Part shown: piece by piece, positions 2,326 to 48,489 of the stretch
Numbering within the stretch: the first letter of the stretch is position 1
Layout of the letters: each line of letters begins with the position of its first letter
Assembly (NCBI GenBank): GCA_030651065.1
Contig: JAUSCU010000018.1
Location: 1 to 50,347, forward strand
Source of the DNA: Candidatus Omnitrophota bacterium
GTDB lineage: Bacteria; Omnitrophota; Gorgyraeia; 1-14-0-20-64-10
Length of the DNA: 50,347 nucleotides
Direction of reading: 5' to 3'
Position numbers and translations under genes: made by a program
The notes under the pieces: generated by a model
Database searches by the model: none
Seen by the model: only the letters and a program-made list of their open reading frames with translations
What the model was told of the DNA's origin: nothing

Positions 2326-4485
2326 ATGTACCGCCGCCTGACCCCCTGGATCCTCACCATCCTTGCCGTCGCCGGGCTGGCGGTCTGGTCCGCCTTCCCG
2401 CTGAAAGAAAAGATCTCCCTCGGGCTCGATCTCCAGGGCGGGATGCACCTGATCCTCAAGGTGGACACGGCGAAGCTGCCGCCCGAGGCGCGGGCCGACG
2501 CGGCGGAGCGGGCGCTGGAGGTTATCCGCAACCGGATCGACCAGTTCGGGGTGAAGGAACCGTCGATCCATCAGCAGGGGAAAGATGAGATTGTGGTCCA
2601 GCTGCCGGGTATCACCGACCGGGAGCGGGCGCTGGCAATCGTCCAGCAGGTGGCCCACCTGGAGTTCCGGATGGTCAGCGCCGACCCCGAGCTGCTCAAA
2701 AAAGCGATTGCCGGGGAGATGGTGGACGGCTACGAGGTCGTCCGGGATGCGCAAGGGGAACCGTACCTTCTGGAAAGACAAGTCCCGCTGACCGGTGAGG
2801 GGCTGGCCAACGCCCATGTGGACTACGGGCAGTTCGGATCGCCGGAGGTGAGCTTTGCGCTGACGCCGGCAGGGTCCAAGGTCTTCTCGCAGTTGACGGC
2901 GTCCAACATCGGCCGGCGGCTGGCGATCGTGCTGGACGGCCGCGTGAAATCGGCGCCGGTCATCCAGGGCCAGATCTCCGACCAGGGACAGATTACCGGC
3001 CGCTTCACGCAGCAGGAGGCGCTGGATTTGGCCCTCGTGCTCCGGAGCGGCGCGCTGCCGGCCCCTCTGGTCGTCGAGGAGGAGCGGACCATCGGCCCGC
3101 TGTTGGGCAACGACTCGATCCGGGCCGGCGTCAAGGCAACCGGGATCGGCATCGGGATGGTCTTCCTCTTCATGGCCGTCTACTACCTGCTGCCGGGGCT
3201 GATCGCCTGCACGGCCCTTGCGCTGAACCTGCTGTTGATCCTCGGCGGCTTGGCCCTGTTCCACGCCACGCTGACACTGCCCGGTATCGCCGGCATCGTG
3301 CTGACGCTCGGTATGGCGGTGGACGCGAACGTCCTCATCTTCGAACGGATGCGGGAGGAGCTGAAGCTCGGCCGAACGATCCGCCAGGTGATCACCAACG
3401 GCTACGACCGTGCCTTCTCAGCGATCCTGGACTCCAACCTCACCACCGTGCTGGCGGCGTTTCTGCTGTTCCAGTTCGGCACCGGCCCGATCCGGGGTTT
3501 CGCGGTGACCACGGTGATCGGTCTGACCGCCAGCATGTTCACGGCGGTGGTGGTCACGCGAGTCATCTTCGAGGCGCTGCACCGGGCTAAGATGCTCCCT
3601 CAGATCCGGATGCTTCATCTGATTGGCCAGACAAAGCTGGATTTCCTGAAACCACGGAAGATCTGCTACGTCATCTCGCTGTTGTGCGTGGTGGGGGGGC
3701 TGGGCTACTTCTCAACGCTCGGGAGCCGTGCCTACGGCATCGACTTCTCCGGCGGCCAGATCCAGCAGTACCATTTCCAGAAGCCGGTGCCGATGGATTC
3801 GGTTCGCTCGGCGGTGCGGGATGCCGGCGTGCAGGACGCCTCGCTGCAGCAGTTCGGCCAGCCCAACGACGTGATGATCCAGACCGGCGGCGATACCGTG
3901 AAGGAGGTTCAGGAGAAGCTGAGGGCCTCTTTCCCGGACAACCCGCCGGAACTGGTCCGGGTGGAGCAGGTGGGCCCTTCGGTGGGGAAGGATTTGAGCA
4001 AGCGGGCGCTCCAGGCAATCTTCTGGGCCCTCGTTTCGATCAGTCTCTACGTCGGTTTCCGGTTCCGTTCCTGGTCTTTCGGCGTGGCCGGCATCGTGGC
4101 GCTGCTGCACGACGTGCTGATCGCGCTGATCGCGCTGGCGATCACCGGCCGGCCGGTTTCGCTGACACTGATCGCCGCTTTCCTGACGATCGCCGGCTAT
4201 TCGATCAACGACACGATCGTGATCTACGACCGGATCCGGGAGCTGCGCCGCACCGCCCGCAAGATGCCGTTCTCGGAGCTGATCAACCTGGCCTTGAACC
4301 AAACACTCTCCCGGACTCTCTTGACCTCCGGCGTCACGCTGCTGACGGTGGTCTCTCTCTTTATGTTCGGCGGCGACATCCTGAACGACCTCGCTTTCGC
4401 GCTGGGGGTCGGTTTCATCTCCGGCGTTTATTCCACCGTCTACATCGCCACCCCGCTGCTTCTTCTTTGGGAGAAGAAGCGCTAA
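2326..4485 (+). CDS. secDF: fused protein-export membrane protein SecDF
   Basis: 719 aa. SecD-like periplasmic head and 6 TM, then a second SecF-like module (GIDFSGG..., LHDVLIALIALA, YSINDTIVIYDRIRE). Canonical position after yajC. Confidence 0.9.
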   Translation: MYRRLTPWILTILAVAGLAVWSAFPLKEKISLGLDLQGGMHLILKVDTAKLPPEARADAAERALEVIRNRIDQFGVKEPSIHQQGKDEIVVQLPGITDRERALAIVQQVAHLEFRMVSADPELLKKAIAGEMVDGYEVVRDAQGEPYLLERQVPLTGEGLANAHVDYGQFGSPEVSFALTPAGSKVFSQLTASNIGRRLAIVLDGRVKSAPVIQGQISDQGQITGRFTQQEALDLALVLRSGALPAPLVVEEERTIGPLLGNDSIRAGVKATGIGIGMVFLFMAVYYLLPGLIACTALALNLLLILGGLALFHATLTLPGIAGIVLTLGMAVDANVLIFERMREELKLGRTIRQVITNGYDRAFSAILDSNLTTVLAAFLLFQFGTGPIRGFAVTTVIGLTASMFTAVVVTRVIFEALHRAKMLPQIRMLHLIGQTKLDFLKPRKICYVISLLCVVGGLGYFSTLGSRAYGIDFSGGQIQQYHFQKPVPMDSVRSAVRDAGVQDASLQQFGQPNDVMIQTGGDTVKEVQEKLRASFPDNPPELVRVEQVGPSVGKDLSKRALQAIFWALVSISLYVGFRFRSWSFGVAGIVALLHDVLIALIALAITGRPVSLTLIAAFLTIAGYSINDTIVIYDRIRELRRTARKMPFSELINLALNQTLSRTLLTSGVTLLTVVSLFMFGGDILNDLAFALGVGFISGVYSTVYIATPLLLLWEKKR

Positions 4486-4495
4486 CGTAGGTTCC

Positions 4496-6199
4496 ATGCG
4501 CAAGACCTGGGTCCTTCACCCGGTGGATGAGGTTTTGGCGCGGGAGATGGCCGGCGCCCTCGGGGTGAGCCCAGTCATCGCCCGCCTTTTGATCCGCCGG
4601 GGCATTGGGTCTTTCTCCGCCGCGGAGCAATTCCTGTTCGGCGATGTCGGCTCTCTGGCCGATCCGGGCCGGATGGCCGGCCTGCCTGAAGCGGTGCGGC
4701 TGATCCGCCACGCTCTCCGCGAGAAAAAGAAAATCCTGATCGTCGGCGATTATGACGTCGACGGCCTCACCAGCTCGGCCCTCCTGCAGTGGGTCCTGCG
4801 TTCCCTGGGTGCCGACGTTTCCTGCCACATCCCCCACCGAATGGAAGACGGCTACGGCCTGAAGCCGGAGGTCGTCGAGAAGGCGCATCAAGACGGCGTG
4901 GAGCTGCTGATCACCACCGACTGCGGAACCTGCAGCTTCAAGGAGCTCGAGCTCGCCCGCCGTTTTGGGATGGAGACGGTAGTGGTGGACCACCACGACC
5001 TCGATCCCGCCGGGCCTCCCCCGGCCTCCGCTTTTCTGAACCCCTTGCGGTCGGACTGCGGCTACCCGGAGAAAGAACTCTCCTCGGCCGGCGTCGCCTT
5101 CACGCTGGCGCGCGGGCTGCTGGAGGGAGGGGCAGGCACCTGGGAGCATCTGGACCTGGTGGCGCTGAGCACCGTGGCCGACATGGCGCCTCTTTCCGGC
5201 GAGAACCGGATCCTGGTCCGGGCCGGGCTGCACGCGCTGGAGCACACGCGAAAACCGGGTTTGCGGGCGCTGCTGTCGCAGGCCAAGCTGGAGGGAAAAA
5301 CCCTGACGCCCGAAGAGATCAGCTTCCGGCTGGCCCCGCCGCTCAACGCCGCCGGGAGGATGGGTTCCTCAGAAGCCAGCTTCCGGCTGTTGACGACCGC
5401 CGACCCTGTGGAAGCGGAGGCGGCGGTCAAGTCGCTGTTCAAAGACAACCGGGCCCGCAGGGCGCTGGAAGGGGAGGCGTTCAAGAAAGCGCTGGTCAAG
5501 GTGGCCCGCGAGATCAATTTCAGCCGGGACCGGGTGATCATCTTGGAGGATGAGAAATGGCACCCCGGCGTGGCCGGCATCCTGGCAACCCGCCTGACGT
5601 ACCGGTTCCACCGTCCTACGGTCGTGATCGCCGTCAACGGCTCCATCTGCCGCGGATCGGCCCGCTCCACGCGGGCGCTCGACCTGGTCCAGGCGCTCCA
5701 TGCGGTGAAGGAACATCTGGTGGAGTTCGGCGGGCACCCGGGCGCCGCGGGGCTTACCATCGAACGGGACCGGATCGTCCCGTTCCGGGAGGCGCTCAAC
5801 CGCGTGGCGCACGAACGGATGGACCGCGGGCAACTCTCTCCCTCGGTGGAGCTCGATGGGGAGCTGCCTCTCTCGGACCTGACGGAGAGCCTGATGCGGG
5901 AGATGGAGGCGCTAGCACCCTTCGGGACCGGCAACCCGAGGCCGGTCTTTTTAAGCCGGGACGCCCGGCTGCCGGCGGAAAGAGGGCCGGCCGGTTTCCA
6001 TCCGATGGGAATGCGCGTGACCGTGCAGGACCCGCAAGGGAACAGTTTTGAGGCGCTGCAGCCGCGCGACGCGCTGGGGGAGGGCTTAAACCTGCGGCGG
6101 GTGCGGGGTCCGGTGCATCTGGCCTATTCGCCGGTCTCCCGGCGCGAGGAAGACCGGTTCAGTATCGAGCTTCGGCTGCGGGACCTGAAACTTCCGTAA
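4496..6199 (+). CDS. recJ: single-stranded-DNA-specific exonuclease RecJ
   Basis: DHH-family motifs: ILIVGDYDVDGLTS, ITTDCG, VVDHH, GGHPGAAG (DHHA1). Confidence 0.9.
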   Translation: MRKTWVLHPVDEVLAREMAGALGVSPVIARLLIRRGIGSFSAAEQFLFGDVGSLADPGRMAGLPEAVRLIRHALREKKKILIVGDYDVDGLTSSALLQWVLRSLGADVSCHIPHRMEDGYGLKPEVVEKAHQDGVELLITTDCGTCSFKELELARRFGMETVVVDHHDLDPAGPPPASAFLNPLRSDCGYPEKELSSAGVAFTLARGLLEGGAGTWEHLDLVALSTVADMAPLSGENRILVRAGLHALEHTRKPGLRALLSQAKLEGKTLTPEEISFRLAPPLNAAGRMGSSEASFRLLTTADPVEAEAAVKSLFKDNRARRALEGEAFKKALVKVAREINFSRDRVIILEDEKWHPGVAGILATRLTYRFHRPTVVIAVNGSICRGSARSTRALDLVQALHAVKEHLVEFGGHPGAAGLTIERDRIVPFREALNRVAHERMDRGQLSPSVELDGELPLSDLTESLMREMEALAPFGTGNPRPVFLSRDARLPAERGPAGFHPMGMRVTVQDPQGNSFEALQPRDALGEGLNLRRVRGPVHLAYSPVSRREEDRFSIELRLRDLKLP

Positions 6200-11420: not shown

Positions 11421-13234
11421 TGGCGCAGGACACCCACCTACGCAACATCGCGATCATCGCCCACGTGGACCACGGCAAGACCACGCTAGTGGACGCGATG
11501 CTGCGTTATACGCATGCCGTGAGAGGCATTGTCTCCGAGGGGACGCTCATCATGGACTCCATGGACCTGGAGCGTGAGAAGGGGATCACGATCCGGGCCA
11601 AGAACGCCAGCCTCCTGTTCGGCGACGTCAAGATCAACATCGTGGACACGCCGGGCCACGCCGACTTCGGCGGCGAGGTGGAACGAACGCTGCGGATGGT
11701 GGACGGGGCGCTGTTGCTGGTGGACGCCAAGGATGGCCCGATGCCGCAGACCAAGTTCGTCCTGCGCAAAGCGATCGCGCTGGGATTGCCGGTGATCGTG
11801 GTGGTCAACAAGATCGACCGGCCGGACGCCCAGGTAGACGAGGCCTTGAACCGGACCTTCGACCTCTTTGTAGAGCTCAACGCCTCGCACGACCAGTTGG
11901 ATTTCCCGATCGTCTATGCCTCGGCGTTATTGGGTACCGCCACGCTGCACATGGACAAGCCCAGCCCCGACGTCGGCCCCTTGTTCGAGACGATCGTTCA
12001 AAAGATCCCTCCCCCTACCGTGCTTCCGGACGATCCTCTGCAGATCCTGGTGCTGGCGCTCGCCTACGATTCCTTCAAGGGGATGATGGCGATCGGAAAG
12101 ATCCAGGCCGGCTCCATCAAAAAAGGCCAGGCGGTGACGCGGATCGATGCCGCCGGCAAGCAGATCCGCGCCAACGTGCTGGCCCTGCTGGCGTACCAGG
12201 GGTTGGAGCGGATGGAGATCGCGGCGGCCGGCGCCGGTGAGATCGTGGCGGTGGCCGGCTTCGAGGAGATCTCCATCGGCGACACGATCACCGACCCCGA
12301 GCGGCCCCGGCCTTTGCCCCGCGTGGAGATCGAGGAGCCCACACTCCAGATGTCCTTCGCCGTCAACAAAAGCCCCTTCGCCGGAAAGGAGGGCAAGTAC
12401 GTCACCTCCCGCGCGCTGAGGGAGCGGCTGGAGAAGGAGCTGGAGACCAATGTGGCTCTGCGGATGGCCGACACCGACAACCCCGACACGATGCTGGTCT
12501 CCGGGCGGGGCGAGCTTCATCTGGCGATCCTGATCGAGACGATGCGGCGGGAAGGGTACGAGATGGAAGTCTCCCAGCCGGAGGTGGTCTACAAGGAAAA
12601 GGACGGCAAGCGGCAGGAGCCGTTCGAGTTTCTCACCATCGACACGCCGAGTGAGCACCAGGGGATCGTCATGGAAGAACTGGGCCGGCGCCGGGGTGAG
12701 ATGAAGGACATGTCGCATACGGCCACCGGTGAGATCCATCTGGAGTACCACATCACGACCCGCGGCCTGCTGGGCCTCAAGAACATTCTGCTCAAAAAGA
12801 CGCGCGGCACCGCCGTGGCGCACCACATGTTCGAAGGGTACCAGCCGGTCATCACGGACCTTCCGGGCCAACAGCCGCACGGCTCGCTGGTGGCCACCGA
12901 GGACGGCGTCAGTAGTTCCTACGCGATCATGAACATCCAGGAACGGGGGGAGCTGTTTATCGGTCCCACGGTCCCGGTCTATACCGGCATGGTGGTGGGG
13001 CAGACCAGCCGCGACCAGGATCTTGGCGTGAACATCTGCAAGCTGAAGAAACTCACCAACGTCCGCTCCAACGCGGAGGCCACTATCCTGCTGGTCCCGG
13101 CGCGCGAGATGACGTTGGAGCTGTCCCTCGAGTACATCGGCCCCGATGAGCTCCTCGAAGTGACCCCGAAATCCCTCCGGATCCGCAAGCGGATCGGCGA
13201 CCAAAAGCAGCGCCTCCGCTCCCAGAAGGACTAG
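11420..13234 (+). CDS. typA: translational GTPase TypA/BipA
   Basis: [36 protein letters not shown] and the full EF-G-like domain layout. The start is set at the ATG of [13 protein letters not shown]. Confidence 0.92.
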
Positions 13235-13268: not shown

Positions 13269-13300
13269 CCTGGATAGTAGACAAAGTTCTGCTATTCAGG
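13269..13300 (+). repeat. hairpin H0: 12-bp stem (two G-U pairs when read on the + strand), 8-nt loop
   Basis: cctggatagtag/acaaagtt/ctgctattcagg. Pairs c69-g300 ... g80-c89, with 13273-13296 and 13278-13291 as G-T. Confidence 0.6.
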
Positions 13301-13316
13301 TAGAATTGGCTGCGTG

Positions 13317-13351
13317 AAAACTTGAGGTCGCAATTTGCGACTTCAAGTTTT
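13317..13351. repeat. hairpin H1 of the TCRCA-N3-TGYGA family (16 bp, one G-T); A-tract/T-tract flanks resemble a bidirectional intrinsic terminator
   Basis: aaaacttgaggtcgca-att-tgcgacttcaagtttt. It lies 83 nt after the typA stop and 18 nt before the ORF6N ATG. Confidence 0.85.
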
Positions 13352-13544
13352 TCCAGGGAGGATTGCGAATGGAGTTACAGATTGAGAAGAAGATTCTTTT
13401 TCTGCGTGGGCACAGGGTAATGCTGGATACCGATCTGGCGGCGCTTTATGGAGTTCCCACTGGAGTGTTAAACCAAGCGGTCAGACGGAACATGGACCGA
13501 TTTCCGGACGATTTTATGTTCCAACTTACCCGTGAGGAGATCGA

Positions 13545-13571
13545 GAGGATATCACAATTTGTGATATCCTC
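13545..13571. repeat. hairpin H2 of the TCRCA-N3-TGYGA family (13 bp perfect, 1-nt centre)
   Basis: gaggatatcacaa-t-ttgtgatatcctc; read in the ORF frame as R-I-S-Q-F-V-I-S-S. Confidence 0.9.
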
Positions 13572-13610
13572 CGGCGGCTATAGAACCTGTGATCTCAAAA
13601 GGCAAGAATC

Positions 13611-13637
13611 TCTAAGATCACAGTTTGTGATCTTAGA
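13611..13637. repeat. hairpin H3 of the TCRCA-N3-TGYGA family (12 bp perfect, 3-nt loop)
   Basis: tctaagatcaca-gtt-tgtgatcttaga; read in the ORF frame as L-R-S-Q-F-V-I-L-E. Confidence 0.9.
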
Positions 13638-13644
13638 ACATCTT

Positions 13645-13665
13645 GGTATCGCAAAATGCGATACC
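13645..13665. repeat. hairpin H4 of the TCRCA-N3-TGYGA family (9 bp perfect, 3-nt loop)
   Basis: ggtatcgca-aaa-tgcgatacc. Reads G-I-A-K-C-D-T in the ORF frame and V-S-Q-N-A-I-P in the +1 frame. Confidence 0.85.
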
Positions 13666-13753
13666 TGGAATTGGGAGAACTACGGCCATGGAACATTGCT
13701 ATCTTTTGCTGAGATGCGCGGGTTGGGTGGTGCGGGAGGGAAGCGAAAGGGAA

Positions 13754-14932
13754 CTACGAGCGCGGCCGGAAAAGGCCGAGGCTCGCCGTGAAGCCGTGGA
13801 TGTAGTTGCGCGGTCCGATCGGCCCGATCTCCCCGTTGCAGAAGAAGCCGGCGACGGGACAGCCGGGCCCGACCGCCTCCCGGATCATCCGGACATCCAC
13901 GTCGGGCTCCCCGTAGAGGTCCCGGCCGCGGCCGAGGCAGCTGAACAGCAGCCCGCCGCTGAATCCGGACTTGGGCAACGAGCCCTGGCCGAGCAGGGTC
14001 TGGAGGTCCTCGCGTGAGGTGCCGGCGTCCCGCACGTGGAACTGCACGGTTTGGCCGGTCTGGATCTTGTCTCCCACGGCTAGCGCCCCCACGGAAGGAT
14101 CCATGCCGATGAGGTTCCGGATCAGGAAATCCCCCCGCTGGAACTTTTCCTTGTACTCGTCCATCACCACCCCCAGCAGCAGCGCCTGCCGGGCCAGCTT
14201 CTTATCGGCTTCCGACAGCTCGCCGTAGAGCTGCTGGAGCGTATTCATAGCCGGCTGGCCGGCCAACTCCAGGATCACGTTCTCCTCGGCCCGGGTGATG
14301 ATGTAGGGCCGGCCGACCGGCCGGCAGCCCTGCGAGACCACGGTTTCGAGCCGGATGTCGCCGGTCAGCAGAAGACCGACCGCTCCTTCCGGGACAATAT
14401 CGTCGTTGAAGAAGAGGGCGTTGCCGCCGGCTTCCGAAGCCCCGCTGGCTAAACCCCCAATGAGCGGCATCTTGGGATAAACAGCGTTTAAACCCGAGAC
14501 CAGCCCCATGCAATCGCAGCTGAACGGGTCCGGCAGCAGGATGCCGGAGGGCTCTTCTTTTGGGTTGACGCCGGTCTTCTCGATCCAAAAGCCCGGCTCC
14601 TGTTGTTCCGCCAATTCCTGAGGGGTGACGGTAAACGGATGCAGTTTCACGCCCGGTAGATGGGCCAGGGAGAGCGAGAGGGCCGGCGCATGCTCCAACT
14701 CTTTTCCGGCTCCCAGCACTCCGCCGGCGGTGCAGCCGAGCAGCAGCGGCGAGCCCAGCTCCTTCCGGAGCCGGCGCAGCAGCGGTTGCCACTCGGTCCG
14801 GTACAGGCCGGAGACGAACAGGAAAGCGGCATGTGCCGGTTTGCCCTGCAGGGAGGGGAGGGCTTGGGCGGCCGCGGCCTCAAGGGCTTTCGAGGGATCG
14901 GTTTGGTCGGAGATTCCGGCGGCAAAAAGCAT
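13754..14932 (-). CDS. FIST-domain (FIST_N + FIST_C) sensory protein
   Basis: 392 aa. The overall pattern and the C-terminal ...GFFCNGEIGPIG... are characteristic of FIST_C. No output domain is fused. Confidence 0.65.
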   Translation of the reverse strand: MLFAAGISDQTDPSKALEAAAAQALPSLQGKPAHAAFLFVSGLYRTEWQPLLRRLRKELGSPLLLGCTAGGVLGAGKELEHAPALSLSLAHLPGVKLHPFTVTPQELAEQQEPGFWIEKTGVNPKEEPSGILLPDPFSCDCMGLVSGLNAVYPKMPLIGGLASGASEAGGNALFFNDDIVPEGAVGLLLTGDIRLETVVSQGCRPVGRPYIITRAEENVILELAGQPAMNTLQQLYGELSEADKKLARQALLLGVVMDEYKEKFQRGDFLIRNLIGMDPSVGALAVGDKIQTGQTVQFHVRDAGTSREDLQTLLGQGSLPKSGFSGGLLFSCLGRGRDLYGEPDVDVRMIREAVGPGCPVAGFFCNGEIGPIGPRNYIHGFTASLGLFRPRS

Positions 14933-23765: not shown

Positions 23766-25943
23766 ATGAATTCCCCCGTGAAAACCACCCGCGCTGTTTC
23801 TCCGACGGCGGTCTCGCTCGACACCCCGGTGCAGTACTTGAAGGGGGTGGGGCCGCGCCGCAATTCCTTCTATGACCGGCTGGGTTTAAAGACGCTGCGG
23901 GACCTGCTGTATCATTTCCCGCGGCGGCATGAGGACCGGCGAGCTTTTCTTTCCATCTCCCAGTTGGAGCCGGGCCAGAAGGGCACCGCGCGCGGTGTCA
24001 TCTCAAGCGTCAGCCTTTTCCGGGCGAAGACCGGCACGCTGATCCTGCAGGTGTCGGTGCGGGACAGCACCGGTTTGGTGACCGCCCTCTGGTTTAACCA
24101 GCCCTACATGCGGAAATGGTTCTCCGTCGGGCAGGAAATCATCCTGTACGGCGCCGTGGACCGGATCGGCCGGAAGGTGCAGATGACGGTGCCGGAGTTC
24201 GAGTTCATCCCGAAGGAAGCCGCCGGCGCGGAGCACAAGACGCTGCACATGGGACGGATGGTGCCGGTTTACCCGGCTACCTCCGGCCTGCACCAGCGGG
24301 AGCTGCGGGAAACGGCGGCGGCGGCTTTGAAAACACTCTGGAACAGCTTGCCGGACCCTCTGCCGGAGGAGATCCGGCAGAGGCACGGGCTGCTGGATTT
24401 CAAGACGGCGATGACCCGGATCCATTTCCCGCCGGCGCCGGAGGCGGTGGCGGGGGCGAAGGACCGGGTGACGTTCGACGAAATGTTCTGCTTCCAGCTG
24501 GCGCTGGGGATGCGCCGGAAGAAGATGCAGGCCCGGCCCGGCATCGCGCATGAGGTGGCGGGCGATCTCGTGGAGCGGTGGAAGAAACGGCTGCCCTTTA
24601 CGCTGACCGCCGGCCAGGAGAAGGCGATGAAGGAGATCGCCGCGGATATGGCGGCGCCCTCGCCGATGCACCGGCTGCTGCAGGGGGAGGTCGGATCCGG
24701 CAAGACGGTGGTGGCCGCTTATGCTATGGCGGTGGCGGCGCAGAGCGGGTCCCAGTCGGTGGTGCTGGCCCCCACCGAGGTGCTCGCCCGGCAGCACGCG
24801 CTGACGCTGTCGCAGATGCTTTCCCCGGCCGACATTTCCGTGGGGTTGCTGACCAGCTCATTGGAGGAGCCGGCCCGCCGGCAGATGGCCAGGGATCTCG
24901 CCGAAGGGAAACTGCAAGTTTTGGTGGGGACGCACGCCGCGCTGGAGCCGTGGGTCCGCTTCTCGAAGCTGGGACTGGCGGTGATCGACGAACAGCAGAA
25001 GTTCGGTGTGGACCAGCGCAACGCGCTGATTTCCAAAGGGAACAACCCGGATCTGCTAATCCTCACCGCTACGCCGATCCCCCGGACGCTGAGCCTGACG
25101 CTCTACGGGGAGATGGCCGTTTCCACGCTCGTTGAGCGGCCGGCCGGGCGGCAGACGGCCCGCACCCTTTGGATGGATTCGACCCGCAGGGAAGAAGTCT
25201 TCACCTTCGTCAAATCGGAGTTGGCGGCGGGCCGGCAGGCCTACGTGGTTTGCCCCCGCATCGGGGGAGACGGCAGCAAGGATCAGCCGGGGGAAGACCT
25301 GTTCCCCTCCATCCAGTCCGCCGTGGAAAAGGTCCGGGCGCCGGTCCGGACCGTGTCGGTCCTGCAGATGTTCGCGGAGTACCAGCATCTTTTTTCCGGC
25401 TACCGGGTCGGGCTGCTGCACGGGCGGATGAAGGCCGACGAACAGAAAAAGGTCTTCGCCGCTTTCAAACAGAAGGAGATCCATCTACTGGTGGCAACGC
25501 AAGTGATCGAGGTCGGGGTGGACGTGGCCAACGCCACCGTGATGGTGATCGAGGGGGCGGAGCGGTTCGGGCTTTCACAGCTGCACCAGCTGAGGGGCCG
25601 GGTCGGCCGCGGTGAGCATGAGTCCACTTGCATCCTGATCGCCGACCCGAAGGACCCCGCCGGTATGGAGCGGCTGCAGACGATGGTGCAGGTGGCCGAC
25701 GGGTTCCGGATCGCCGAGGAGGACTTGAGGCTGCGGGGCCCGGGGGAGCTGCTGGGCAAGCGCCAGTCCGGGCTGCCGGACCTGAAATGCCTTGAGTGGG
25801 CCGTGCAGGGACCGTGGCTCGAGCTCGCCCGAAAAGAGGCGGAAACGATGCTGGCCGCGGAACCGGAGTTGGACGCCCCCGCGCTGGCTCCTCTCAAAAG
25901 GGAAGTGAAGTTGCGCTTTCCTCAACTCATTGAGACCGCGTGA
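23766..25943 (+). CDS. recG: ATP-dependent DNA helicase RecG
   Basis: Wedge/OB N-domain, LPFTLTAGQ, GEVGSGKT (Walker A), DEQQKFG (DEAH-type), QLHQLRGRVGRG. The ATG at 23736 is an alternative start. Confidence 0.9.
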   Translation: MNSPVKTTRAVSPTAVSLDTPVQYLKGVGPRRNSFYDRLGLKTLRDLLYHFPRRHEDRRAFLSISQLEPGQKGTARGVISSVSLFRAKTGTLILQVSVRDSTGLVTALWFNQPYMRKWFSVGQEIILYGAVDRIGRKVQMTVPEFEFIPKEAAGAEHKTLHMGRMVPVYPATSGLHQRELRETAAAALKTLWNSLPDPLPEEIRQRHGLLDFKTAMTRIHFPPAPEAVAGAKDRVTFDEMFCFQLALGMRRKKMQARPGIAHEVAGDLVERWKKRLPFTLTAGQEKAMKEIAADMAAPSPMHRLLQGEVGSGKTVVAAYAMAVAAQSGSQSVVLAPTEVLARQHALTLSQMLSPADISVGLLTSSLEEPARRQMARDLAEGKLQVLVGTHAALEPWVRFSKLGLAVIDEQQKFGVDQRNALISKGNNPDLLILTATPIPRTLSLTLYGEMAVSTLVERPAGRQTARTLWMDSTRREEVFTFVKSELAAGRQAYVVCPRIGGDGSKDQPGEDLFPSIQSAVEKVRAPVRTVSVLQMFAEYQHLFSGYRVGLLHGRMKADEQKKVFAAFKQKEIHLLVATQVIEVGVDVANATVMVIEGAERFGLSQLHQLRGRVGRGEHESTCILIADPKDPAGMERLQTMVQVADGFRIAEEDLRLRGPGELLGKRQSGLPDLKCLEWAVQGPWLELARKEAETMLAAEPELDAPALAPLKREVKLRFPQLIETA

Positions 25944-47915: not shown

Positions 47916-48489
47916 AACCACCGGCGAAGTGCTCGCCCGCCGGGCGGGCCTGCTTCGGATCCGGCCCGCGCGGCCGCTGAAAGGGCTGGCGGAGGGTGAG
48001 AGCATCGCCCTGAACGGCGTCTGCCTGACATTGGACCGTTCCCGGAAGGGAGATCTGGAATTCCGTCTGCTTCCGGAGACTCTGCGGGCCACGACGCTGG
48101 GGATTTTGAAGCCGGGCGGGCGCGTGAACCTGGAGCGGTCGTTGCGGGCGGGCAGCCGGGTGGGAGGCCACCTGGTTCTGGGCCACGTGGACGGGAAGGG
48201 AAAGGTGGCCGTCCTCCGGAAAGTGAAGGACACCGCGACGCTCGAGATCTCGTTGTCTCCCGCGATGGGCGCGCTGCTGGTCCCCAAAGGCCCGATCACC
48301 GTGGATGGGGTGAGCCTGACGATCGGAACCACGGTACCGGGTACCCGGAGGGTACCCGGTACCGATTGTTTTTCCGTGCACTTAATCCGGCACACTCTTT
48401 CCTCGACGACGCTTTCCGGAAAGAGGCCGGGCGACGAGGTCAATCTGGAGATTGATCCGGTCGCCAAGATTTTGAGGGGCATGCTATAG
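47896..48489 (+). CDS. ribE: riboflavin synthase alpha chain
   Basis: (M)FTGIIETTGEV......GESIALNGVCLT......NLER......GGHLV.GHVDG......KG.ITVDGVSLT. The TTG start overlaps the ankyrin gene by 20 nt. Confidence 0.88.
   Translation: MFTGIIETTGEVLARRAGLLRIRPARPLKGLAEGESIALNGVCLTLDRSRKGDLEFRLLPETLRATTLGILKPGGRVNLERSLRAGSRVGGHLVLGHVDGKGKVAVLRKVKDTATLEISLSPAMGALLVPKGPITVDGVSLTIGTTVPGTRRVPGTDCFSVHLIRHTLSSTTLSGKRPGDEVNLEIDPVAKILRGML
48332..48364. repeat. perfect 15-bp inverted repeat with 3-nt spacer inside ribE
   Basis: cggtaccgggtaccc-gga-gggtacccggtaccg; encodes T-V-P-G-T-R-R-V-P-G-T-D. Confidence 0.9.

Follow-up and report, generated by a model that had tools for sequence, protein, structure and literature searches.

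A palindrome within ORF6N genes as a predicted DNA site of the encoded helix-turn-helix

The DNA considered here, called the window below, is a stretch of 50,347 nucleotides from a Candidatus Omnitrophota bacterium (GenBank assembly GCA_030651065.1, contig JAUSCU010000018.1, positions 1 to 50,347, forward strand). At 13369-13791 on the plus strand it holds an open reading frame (ORF) with an ORF6N domain, and four short palindromes (H1 to H4) lie in and near this gene. A palindrome of at least nine pairs is present at the same alignment position in 170 of 191 non-identical ORF6N genes (89%), it is under selection at the nucleotide level, and its bases are connected with residues of the encoded protein by a simple code. 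It is probable that these palindromes are dyad-symmetric DNA sites, predicted to be read by the helix-turn-helix of the ORF6N domain.

The palindrome in the window and in the family

The locus comprises the following features:
13317-13351 (35 nt): H1, 16 pairs including one G-T, AAAACTTGAGGTCGCA-ATT-TGCGACTTCAAGTTTT, in the 5' leader
13545-13571: H2, 12 of 12 pairs, GAGGATATCACA-ATT-TGTGATATCCTC, in-gene, encoding ERISQFVISS
13611-13637: H3, 12 of 12 pairs, TCTAAGATCACA-GTT-TGTGATCTTAGA
13645-13665: H4, 9 of 9 pairs, GGTATCGCA-AAA-TGCGATACC
13588-13600: lone right arm TGTGATCTCAAAA
13369-13586, plus strand: ORF6N-homologous part, residues 1-73, N-domain and linker
13459-13491, plus strand: codons of the predicted recognition helix, T31-N41, TGVLNQAVRRN
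13462-13464, 13474-13476 and 13486-13488, plus strand: predicted specificity codons G32, Q36 and R40
13278-13306, plus strand: sigma-70-like promoter TAGACA-17-TAGAAT, 10 of 12 matches, the sole hit of the region

All four palindromes had been described in an earlier, sequence-only reading and were re-located exactly, with the same single G-T pair; the number of paired positions is 49 and not 50, and the lone right arm had been missed. Matches to TCRCANNNTGYGA in the window number four, all of them H1-H4, against 0.20 expected, and none of 100 shuffles reached four. Folding of H1, H2, H3 and H4 as single-stranded DNA (ssDNA) gives -14.3, -10.4, -10.0 and -8.5 kcal/mol, respectively, with z-scores of -7.0 to -7.4 in comparison to dinucleotide shuffles. 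The reading frames are also as described earlier: H2 is read as ISQFVIS and H3 as RSQFVIL in the ORF frame, H4 as IAKCD in frame and VSQNAIP in the +1 frame, while H1 precedes the ATG (13369), from which its end is 18 nt away.

A protein search for ORF6N relatives gave 3,602 matches at E <= 0.001 from many phyla, and a scan of genomes yielded 80 loci, spread over Verrucomicrobiota, Planctomycetota, Proteobacteria, Acidobacteriota, Omnitrophota, Chloroflexota, Nitrospirota and others; with viral, plasmid and metagenome loci added, the set was enlarged to the 191 non-identical genes. In the first set, a palindrome of at least ten pairs with a 3-nt centre follows FMFQLT.EE at the same alignment position in 80 of 93 genes. 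Its stem ranges from 9 to 16 bp, and its place is constant: about 25 codons past the helix and about 190 nt into the ORF, in the linker that comes after the N-domain. The family consensus is TTTGAGRTCRCA-WWT-TGYGAYCTCAAA, with the core variants TCACA, TCGCA, TTCCA, TGCCA, TACCA and TTGCA. The fraction of Watson-Crick pairing is 0.79-1.0 at pairs 1-12 and about 0.45 at pairs 13-14, and falls to background further out. In 7.3 Gb of plasmid sequence the consensus palindrome is found almost only in or beside ORF6N genes, and it is essentially absent from 5,426 E. coli genomes.

The symmetry does not come from the protein. The genes have a mean of 11.7 paired bases at this position against 5.2-5.35 in synonymous resampling, where 0.3-0.9% of shuffles reach ten, and for outer pairs 7-12 the values are 5.57 of 6 and 2.08; the earlier proposal that the constraint is not simply protein coding is thus borne out. 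At one and the same alignment position the palindrome is translated in a SQ[IF]V-type frame in 151 genes and in a [IV]T[NI]CD-type frame in 19, and so the alternation of SQ[IF]V and [VI]TNCD, which the earlier reading had brought up, is real and represents two readings of one palindrome. In the AlphaFold2 (AF2) model the peptide encoded by the palindrome lies at a helix end and in a linker with a predicted local distance difference test score (pLDDT) below 50. The protein sequence at the palindrome is a passenger of the DNA signal.

The residue-base code

The core of the palindrome varies jointly with the motif [K/x]xLN[Q/E/K/R][A/Q]V[KR]RN (residues 32-41). In the aligned genes, residues 32, 36 and 40 (i, i+4 and i+8) predict pairs 6, 4-3 and 2 of each arm, respectively, and the classes were counted as follows:
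Residues 36-37 QA: pairs 5-2 TCAC, 96 of 99 genes
Residues 36-37 EQ: pairs 5-2 TCGC, 19 of 19 genes
Residues 36-37 KA: pairs 5-2 TTCC, 15 of 16 genes
Residues 36-37 RA: pairs 5-2 TGCC, 9 of 14 genes
Residue 32 K: pair 6 G, 81 of 85
Residue 32 R, G, F or I: pair 6 A, 74 of 80

The plasmid loci add residue 40: R is found with C at pair 2, whereas N or H is found with A, as TCGAA or TCAAA, in four of four cases. A scan of normalised mutual information between 173 protein profile columns and 14 base pairs gave 0.71 for residue 32 and pair 6, 0.70 and 0.60 for residue 33 and pairs 3 and 4, and 0.89 and 0.74 for residue 36 and the same two pairs; all other columns remained at or below 0.3, save the residues encoded by the palindrome itself.

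Linkage of helix and palindrome in ancestral blocks is no explanation of these values, because the columns between helix and palindrome are without signal and because K or non-K combines with every core class. Genes read in the TNCD frame, in which the palindrome encodes an unrelated peptide, follow the same code (14 of 14 for K and G, three of three for EQ and TCGC, 11 of 13 for QA and TCAC), and this excludes residue-residue co-evolution within the protein as its source. Long-range pairing of nucleic acid is not the cause either, since the nucleotide-level signal is confined to codon positions 1 and 2. Common descent was addressed by independent contrasts on a neighbour-joining tree of the remaining protein sequence, in which both members of a pair had to obey the code: 43 of 49 independent pairs did so for residue 32 and 31 of 36 for residue 36. 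Loci L185 and L030, at a protein distance of 0.02, carry K with G and R with A, respectively, and about 40-50 specificity switches can be estimated among 160 sequences.

Twelve plasmid loci from named species of six phyla (genera Parabacteroides, Bacteroides, Sulfuricurvum, Segatella, Haliovirga, Legionella, Alistipes, Butyrivibrio and Treponema) were held out and examined afterwards; a site was present in 11 of the 12, and 10 were predicted fully. In the AF2 model helices 20-27 and 31-40 form a helix-turn-helix with a mean pLDDT of about 90, and the positions i, i+4 and i+8 are placed on one face of helix 31-40. Among the general preferences in protein-DNA contacts are those of Gln for A, of Glu for the C in a G:C pair, and of Lys and Arg for G. 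The pairings of the code match these preferences, which supports direct reading of the DNA by the helix.

The helix of the window gene, TGVLNQAVRRN, predicts the half-site A-TCACA, and this fits H2 and H3. The stem of H2 is identical in L001, L003, L005 and L084, and the leader palindrome of L003 (TTAAGATCACAATTTGTGATCTTAA) almost equals the stem of H3. H1 and H4 do not fit: by class H1 (G-TCGCA) belongs with K32/E36 proteins and H4 (A-TCGCA) with non-K32/E36 proteins, and both are to be regarded as non-cognate to the window gene. H4 equals the internal site of ORF6N genes in L044, L083 (gene 3) and L253. As non-cognate copies of the window lineage match internal sites of other alleles, they are taken as relics of allele replacement or as sites of paralogues. 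The window would then hold a truncated allele with two cognate sites, H2 and H3, and two such relics or paralogue sites.

Many genes have extra sites in the 5' leader or right after the stop codon. Of the palindromes that lie outside an ORF6N gene but no more than 600 nt from it, 42 in all, 18 agree fully with that gene by the code, whereas permutation gives 9.7 +/- 2.4 and attains 18 in only two of 2000 runs. In two loci whose gene has no internal site, L033 and L049, there are three upstream cognate sites and one, respectively. A leader copy occurs in only about 30% of loci and is often non-cognate; in many loci its end is 14-40 nt away from the start codon.

The favoured explanation and its rivals

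Among the roles proposed earlier, that of operator sites for the ORF6N DNA-binding domain is supported by the covariation of residues 32, 33 and 36 with pairs 6, 3 and 4. The broader claim, that covariation of the arms indicates selection on a hairpin or on a dyad protein-binding site, needs one refinement: the compensated changes of the inner six pairs would reflect a symmetric site that co-evolves with a dimeric reader rather than hairpin pairing as such, and only outer pairs 7-12 still require pairing within a strand or templated correction. Each arm would contain a half-site at pairs 2-6 counted from the 3-bp centre. These pairs are at +/-3 to +/-7 from the dyad centre, and therefore the centres of the two half-sites would be 10 bp, one helical turn, apart. 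A dimer, probably formed by the C-terminal coiled coil, would set two recognition helices in successive major grooves, with pair 6 read by residue 32, pairs 4-3 by residue 36 and pair 2 by residue 40. In almost all ORF6N genes one cognate site would be kept in the tolerant linker after the N-domain, and a roadblock within the gene and at the leader could provide autogenous control of a stand-alone, horizontally mobile gene, while a site inside the ORF would keep reader and site linked during gene transfer or a change of specificity. Autogenous control of a mobile single-gene module, a defence-island gene, is probably the role of the in-gene site; protein binding, a dimer on duplex DNA and the autoregulatory purpose are inferred.

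Similar arrangements are known. The repressors 434, lambda cI/Cro and P22 c2 are dimeric helix-turn-helix proteins whose half-sites are about 10 bp apart around an uncontacted A/T-rich centre, with contacts on one face. In the ORF6N family, likewise, a dyad with half-site centres 10 bp apart was found, together with specificity residues that covary with bases. Auxiliary operators within coding sequence, as here, are lac O2 in lacZ and gal OI in galE. In contrast to classical operators, the main site of ORF6N is in the regulator's own ORF across the family, the palindrome extends over 27-35 bp with outer arms that are complementary yet unread, and the binding is predicted. The closest analogue is lambda O with ori-lambda, where dyad-symmetric, repeatable sites of the N-terminal domain are located in the inter-domain linker of its own gene; in lambdoid phages N-domain and sites change together while the C-terminal part is conserved, and the ORF6N arrays of L063 and L023 described below are alike in this. 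However, lambda O initiates replication and has four iterons together with an A/T-rich region for unwinding, whereas ORF6N proteins have no known role in replication, usually one site, a simple residue-base code and a mostly stand-alone, chromosomal existence. A perfect palindrome bound by the product inside its own coding region is also represented by parS in spo0J/parB; parS is near-invariant across bacteria and nucleates a partition complex, while ORF6N sites diversify with the protein. MerR proteins combine an N-terminal (winged) helix-turn-helix with a long coiled-coil dimerisation helix and bind palindromic DNA, but their sites are in promoter spacers and not inside the gene. Three MerR structures (3hh0, 5d90 and 6jgx) were matched weakly, with E of 1.2-4.8, and no sequence or fold match was significant.

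Several points weigh against the reading of the palindromes as operators of the ORF6N protein. More than half of the extragenic palindromes, H1 and H4 included, are non-cognate to the adjacent gene, and conservation is stronger at the internal site than at the one in the leader, an unusual pattern if the operator is autoregulatory. The outer pairs 7-12 are 93% complementary in genes, where a plain duplex operator needs no complementarity, and they covary with no residue except those they encode. The dimer and the duplex geometry rest on inference; a fold search of the PDB gave no significant structural relative with bound DNA (best E 0.087), and a sequence search of the PDB gave no relative. 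Among viral contigs, 49 of 76 matches to the 21-mer GARRTCACAAWTTGTGAYYTC are not near any detectable ORF6N gene; 14 of the viral matches come from one phage family and 5 from another, and some have terminator-like A/T runs. These off-gene matches may be targets, sites of regulators encoded elsewhere, or terminators. The GenBank phage collection contains only five matches, all unannotated, and offers no link to a characterised phage.

The outer pairs could reflect a hairpin or cruciform, a function on ssDNA, or templated correction of one arm by the other. A second, weak half-site for the same helix in the outer arm was considered and rejected, since the outer arms are unchanged across core classes. 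An extruded DNA hairpin or cruciform, formed on ssDNA or under negative supercoiling, could act as a structure-specific signal of recombination or breakage which shuffles alleles, or as a site on incoming ssDNA, with the stem read near the loop. Such an explanation partly overlaps the operator reading, because one hairpin stem reproduces one duplex half-site. It would account for outer pairs which are complementary though unread (5.57 of 6 in genes, 5.21 of 6 outside them), for the A/T-rich centre and for stems of -8.5 to -14.3 kcal/mol as ssDNA; homology breakpoints of close relatives at or beside palindromes (13586/13587 and 13643), motifs duplicated within single linkers (P0074, P0080, P0096 and P0118), and plasmid copies that adjoin integrases and ardA leading-region genes agree with it. 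On the other hand, stems of 12 bp are at the lower limit for extrusion in vivo, the tail boundary of tandem arrays is about 50 codons past the palindrome, no recombinase or HUH enzyme is consistently linked and the neighbouring genes are unconserved, and an empty site that would define the ends of a cassette was not found. On balance it is considered unlikely.

Somewhat less probable still is a self-perpetuating quasi-palindrome, in which intrastrand template switching copies arm to arm and extends the arms, so that the outer arms are a functionless by-product. Outer arms that vary freely yet symmetrically and have no correlate in the protein would be expected from this process, as would the near equality of AAT and ATT centres, as if the whole palindrome flips, and palindromes that outlive the coding sequence in decayed alleles (the window and L259). 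It accounts for pairs 7-12 at most; the code at pairs 2-6, the constant position across many phyla and the upstream cognate sites of genes without an internal site are left unaccounted for.

A hairpin in ORF6N mRNA (leader, coding part or 3' end) acting on stability, processing or translation was also considered. It would suit the four window copies on one transcript predicted from the promoter at 13278-13306, by whose position H1 begins about 4 nt into that transcript as a would-be 5'-proximal stem-loop. However, the mismatches in 121 palindromes comprise 26 G-T, 33 A-C and 78 others, so that wobble pairs are not in excess and most mismatches are not wobble, and AAT and ATT centres are equally common. 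The lack of wobble tolerance and of strand preference favours a DNA dyad over an RNA hairpin. No Rfam family was matched at gathering or at permissive thresholds (ten loci were without a hit at gathering thresholds, and the window region gave only chance-level hits, E >= 0.23), some copies are upstream of promoters or between unrelated genes, and the covarying residues belong, in the model, to a helix-turn-helix, which is a reader of B-form major grooves. The RNA explanation thus did not gain support and is very improbable. Equally improbable is the packing of residues 32 and 36 on the palindrome-encoded peptide (S/F/C/Y ... V/G/A, T/I) with incidental DNA symmetry: core classes of the common frame do each change two amino acids (S..V, S..A, F..G, C..G), but the same rules hold in the other frame with unrelated residues ([IV]T.CD, VA.CD), the peptide is in a low-confidence linker, cognate palindromes occur in non-coding DNA as well, and dyad symmetry is far above synonymous resampling.

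The ends of a small mobile cassette, another role suggested in the sequence-only reading, are not supported either, although the palindromes do coincide with breakpoints of the allele mosaic. Known hairpin-forming elements (REP/RAYT, IS200/IS605 hairpins, attC) are likewise short, with conserved cores and compensated stems, and cluster near a gene; the partner protein of ORF6N palindromes is a predicted helix-turn-helix, unlike theirs. REP/RAYT and IS200/IS605 were rejected, as no HUH (Y1) transposase recurs as a neighbour and all four copies in 50 kb are at this one gene. Integron attC sites were rejected too, because the palindromes are perfect with a 3-nt centre, have no extrahelical bases or core motifs and no conserved IntI integrase, and are inside the genes of arrays.

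Allele turnover, genomic contexts and significance

The window gene matches the ORF6N profile (PF10543) with E 9e-24 and 84 bits, the cut-off being 27.8, but the match is limited to positions 2-63 of the 86 in the profile, and the copy is therefore considered truncated. Its homology to L003 and L001 ends at 13586, after residue 73. The full-length architecture of the subfamily (N-domain, linker, AFTEQGVAMLS helix, coiled coil and KIGF tail) is present in P0002-P0006, which have 182-203 residues, and was not found in the window copy, where homology is lost after residue 73. The remainder of the listed ORF, beyond 13586 and up to 13791, is unrelated and reaches into the 3' end of a FIST gene in convergent orientation (13754-14932, minus strand), and a +1 ORF starting from H4 (13643-14017, plus strand, MVSQNAIPG...) enters this 3' end as well. 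Neither extension is ORF6N-homologous, and they are probably not real coding sequence. H1-H4 and the gene are in an island with a G+C content of 44-50%, in comparison to about 63% for the genome, bounded by the typA/bipA stop codon at 13234 and the FIST gene. Named FIST homologues at about 60% identity make Candidatus Omnitrophota the probable source of the window. The promoter of the ORF6N cassette is conserved in L001, L003, L260 and L262. A terminator scan gave no intrinsic terminator (G+C-rich stem with a T run) at H1-H4. Two other palindromes of the window, CGGTACCGGGTACCCGGAGGGTACCCGGTACCG at 48332-48364 (15 of 15 pairs) and CCTCTGCCGGAGGAGATCCGGCAGAGG at 24357-24383 (11 of 12), are G+C-rich and unrelated in sequence to H1-H4.

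The metagenomic relatives L001, L002 and L003 share the order typA, ORF6N, FIST, yajQ and have full-length genes of 182-203 residues. In comparison to L003 the window carries a replacement segment, defined by blastn and alignment:
13587-13685 (99 nt): replacement segment holding the lone arm, H3 and H4

This segment stands in place of 365 nt of L003, which comprise the C-terminal two thirds of the gene and two palindromes. The leader palindrome is absent at the H1 position in L001 and L002 and is a different one in L003. When anchored on the FIST gene, the comparison depicts a locus that appears hypervariable. L259, with a 97% identical FIST gene, also carries a truncated allele, but of another class; after it come the H4 palindrome and the right flank seen in the window, and window 13643-14200 matches L259 at 88%. 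L260 (FIST 90%) has a full-length allele with the internal palindrome TCTTTGAGATCACAAATTGTGATCTCAAAGA, the right arm of which is identical to the lone arm of the window; on this alignment the deletion or recombination junction sits at the centre of the TCTTTGAGATCACAAATTGTGATCTCAAAGA palindrome. L262 (FIST 79%) has the same promoter block with other flanking genes, and its internal palindrome equals the post-stop palindrome of L003. Several homology breakpoints among close relatives are thus at or beside palindromes, namely 13586/13587 at the centre of the half-palindrome and 13643, two bases before H4. No empty typA-FIST site was found among the relatives: L263 is non-syntenic, and all others have some ORF6N allele. 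A second in-frame palindrome, TTTGACATCGCAAATTGCGAGGTCAAA (LTSQIARS), is located ten codons before the stop codon in L001:1524-1550, L002:774-800 and L003:814-838; it is of class A-TCGCA and non-cognate to its gene.

Tandem arrays of two to four paralogues of different classes, about 45 nt apart, occur in L012, L014, L023:952-2571, L061, L063:263-2611 and L083:959-2444, with the palindromes inside the genes and not between them. In the arrays of L063 and L023 the C-terminal 70 residues or so are almost identical while N-domains and sites differ, as if the tails were homogenised by gene conversion or the heads were under diversifying selection. Recombination exactly at the palindrome was rejected for such arrays, as the identical tails start about 50 codons later. 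Protein P0007 (118 residues, JGI) consists of an N-domain, SLTSQFAMSK and a second N-domain (ERIERSILLIRGHKVMLD...), that is, two fused heads without the C-terminal part.

No conserved partner gene was found among the neighbours of the 80 genome loci or of the viral loci. ORF6N genes are found in the company of toxin-antitoxin pairs, immediately before a type IIG restriction enzyme, with an Abi gene and, in Treponema, in the slot between hsdM and hsdS. Small Segatella plasmids of 2.9-4.1 kb hold only rep and ORF6N; in the Segatella copri plasmids L163 (NZ_CP152354.1, 2955 bp) and L164 (NZ_CP152486.1, 4140 bp) only a replication initiator and ORF6N are annotated; the palindromes of these ORF6N genes are divergent, with TCGAA and TCAAA as cores, and the helix ends in KNN. 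This divergent KNN subfamily had no relatives among the viral contigs searched. On the Legionella pneumophila plasmid NZ_CP048619.1 (L165) the same stem TTAAGGTCACA...TGTGACCTTAA is found at 4168-4194 and 4882-4906, once internally and once 6 nt after the stop codon, with a flipped centre (AAT and ATT), and the two copies bracket the C-terminal 230 codons; NZ_CP004007.1 has the same arrangement. In the Bacteroides ovatus plasmid NZ_CP081918.1 (L166:3345-3373) and in L247 (59 nt upstream) the palindrome lies between a site-specific integrase gene and ORF6N, with ardA and conjugation genes downstream in these Bacteroidales elements, an apparent leading-region context. In L051 an unrelated palindrome, GAGGGGGACAGATTTCAAATCTGTCCCCCTC, flanks ORF6N at 1301-1331 and 2554-2578 and looks REP-type for that genome, and a short tandem repeat (GTACTCA)n is upstream of the ORF6N locus in L055:216-255. 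An imperfect palindrome, GAGGTCACAATTTGTGATTTC, with two G-T pairs on one strand, ends a small ORF in one phage family (viral contigs L097, L099, L104, L106, L109, L122, L127, L133, L135, L145, L146, L154, L157 and L160); its neighbours are metallophosphatase-like and sigma-factor-like genes, with no ORF6N gene in the sequence examined.

Full-length relatives match the PADLOC PDC-S05 profile HMMs (E 1e-47 to 1e-55) and PHROG families named 'anti-repressor'. A PDC-S05 representative with a RhuM domain, from a different subfamily, is reported to have lowered the efficiency of plating of T7 and T5 about 1000-fold (preprint 10.1101/2024.09.26.614923).

ORF6N is a common and uncharacterised domain that is annotated only as 'anti-repressor' or defence candidate. 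The literature searched with ORF6N, KilA-N and the palindrome sequences gave no description of these palindromes or of an ORF6N recognition code, and the only sequence match was an unrelated CRISPR-finder table. What would be new is a helix-turn-helix operator, as predicted here, that a whole family carries within the ORF of the regulator itself, together with a code that can be read. Since a cognate site is placed in the gene, each member supplies a ready pair of protein and site, and the family becomes a natural data set for recognition codes. The code predicts that Q36E would change TCACA to TCGCA, G32K would change pair 6 from A to G, and R40N would change pair 2 from C to A. The apparent protein motif SQIVTS/VTNCD is explained as a translated DNA signal, and caution is advised for profiles and for structure inference at this place. 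Work on how PDC-S05-type defence genes, and the ORF6N genes of conjugative elements and small plasmids, act and are regulated also gains a starting point.

It is tentatively proposed, at somewhat less than even confidence, that the ORF6N proteins are sequence-specific DNA binders, a very large family in which recognition follows a simple code, each gene carries its own target and specificity is switched frequently. If this is true, the targets of thousands of genes, in defence islands or named as phage 'anti-repressor', could be predicted from their sequences, and tandem arrays of paralogues with mixed specificity would become interpretable. PDC-S05-type defence could then act by binding matching phage palindromes, with the in-gene site as a self-titrating control, and the extended complementary arms might let the site act as a hairpin on ssDNA.

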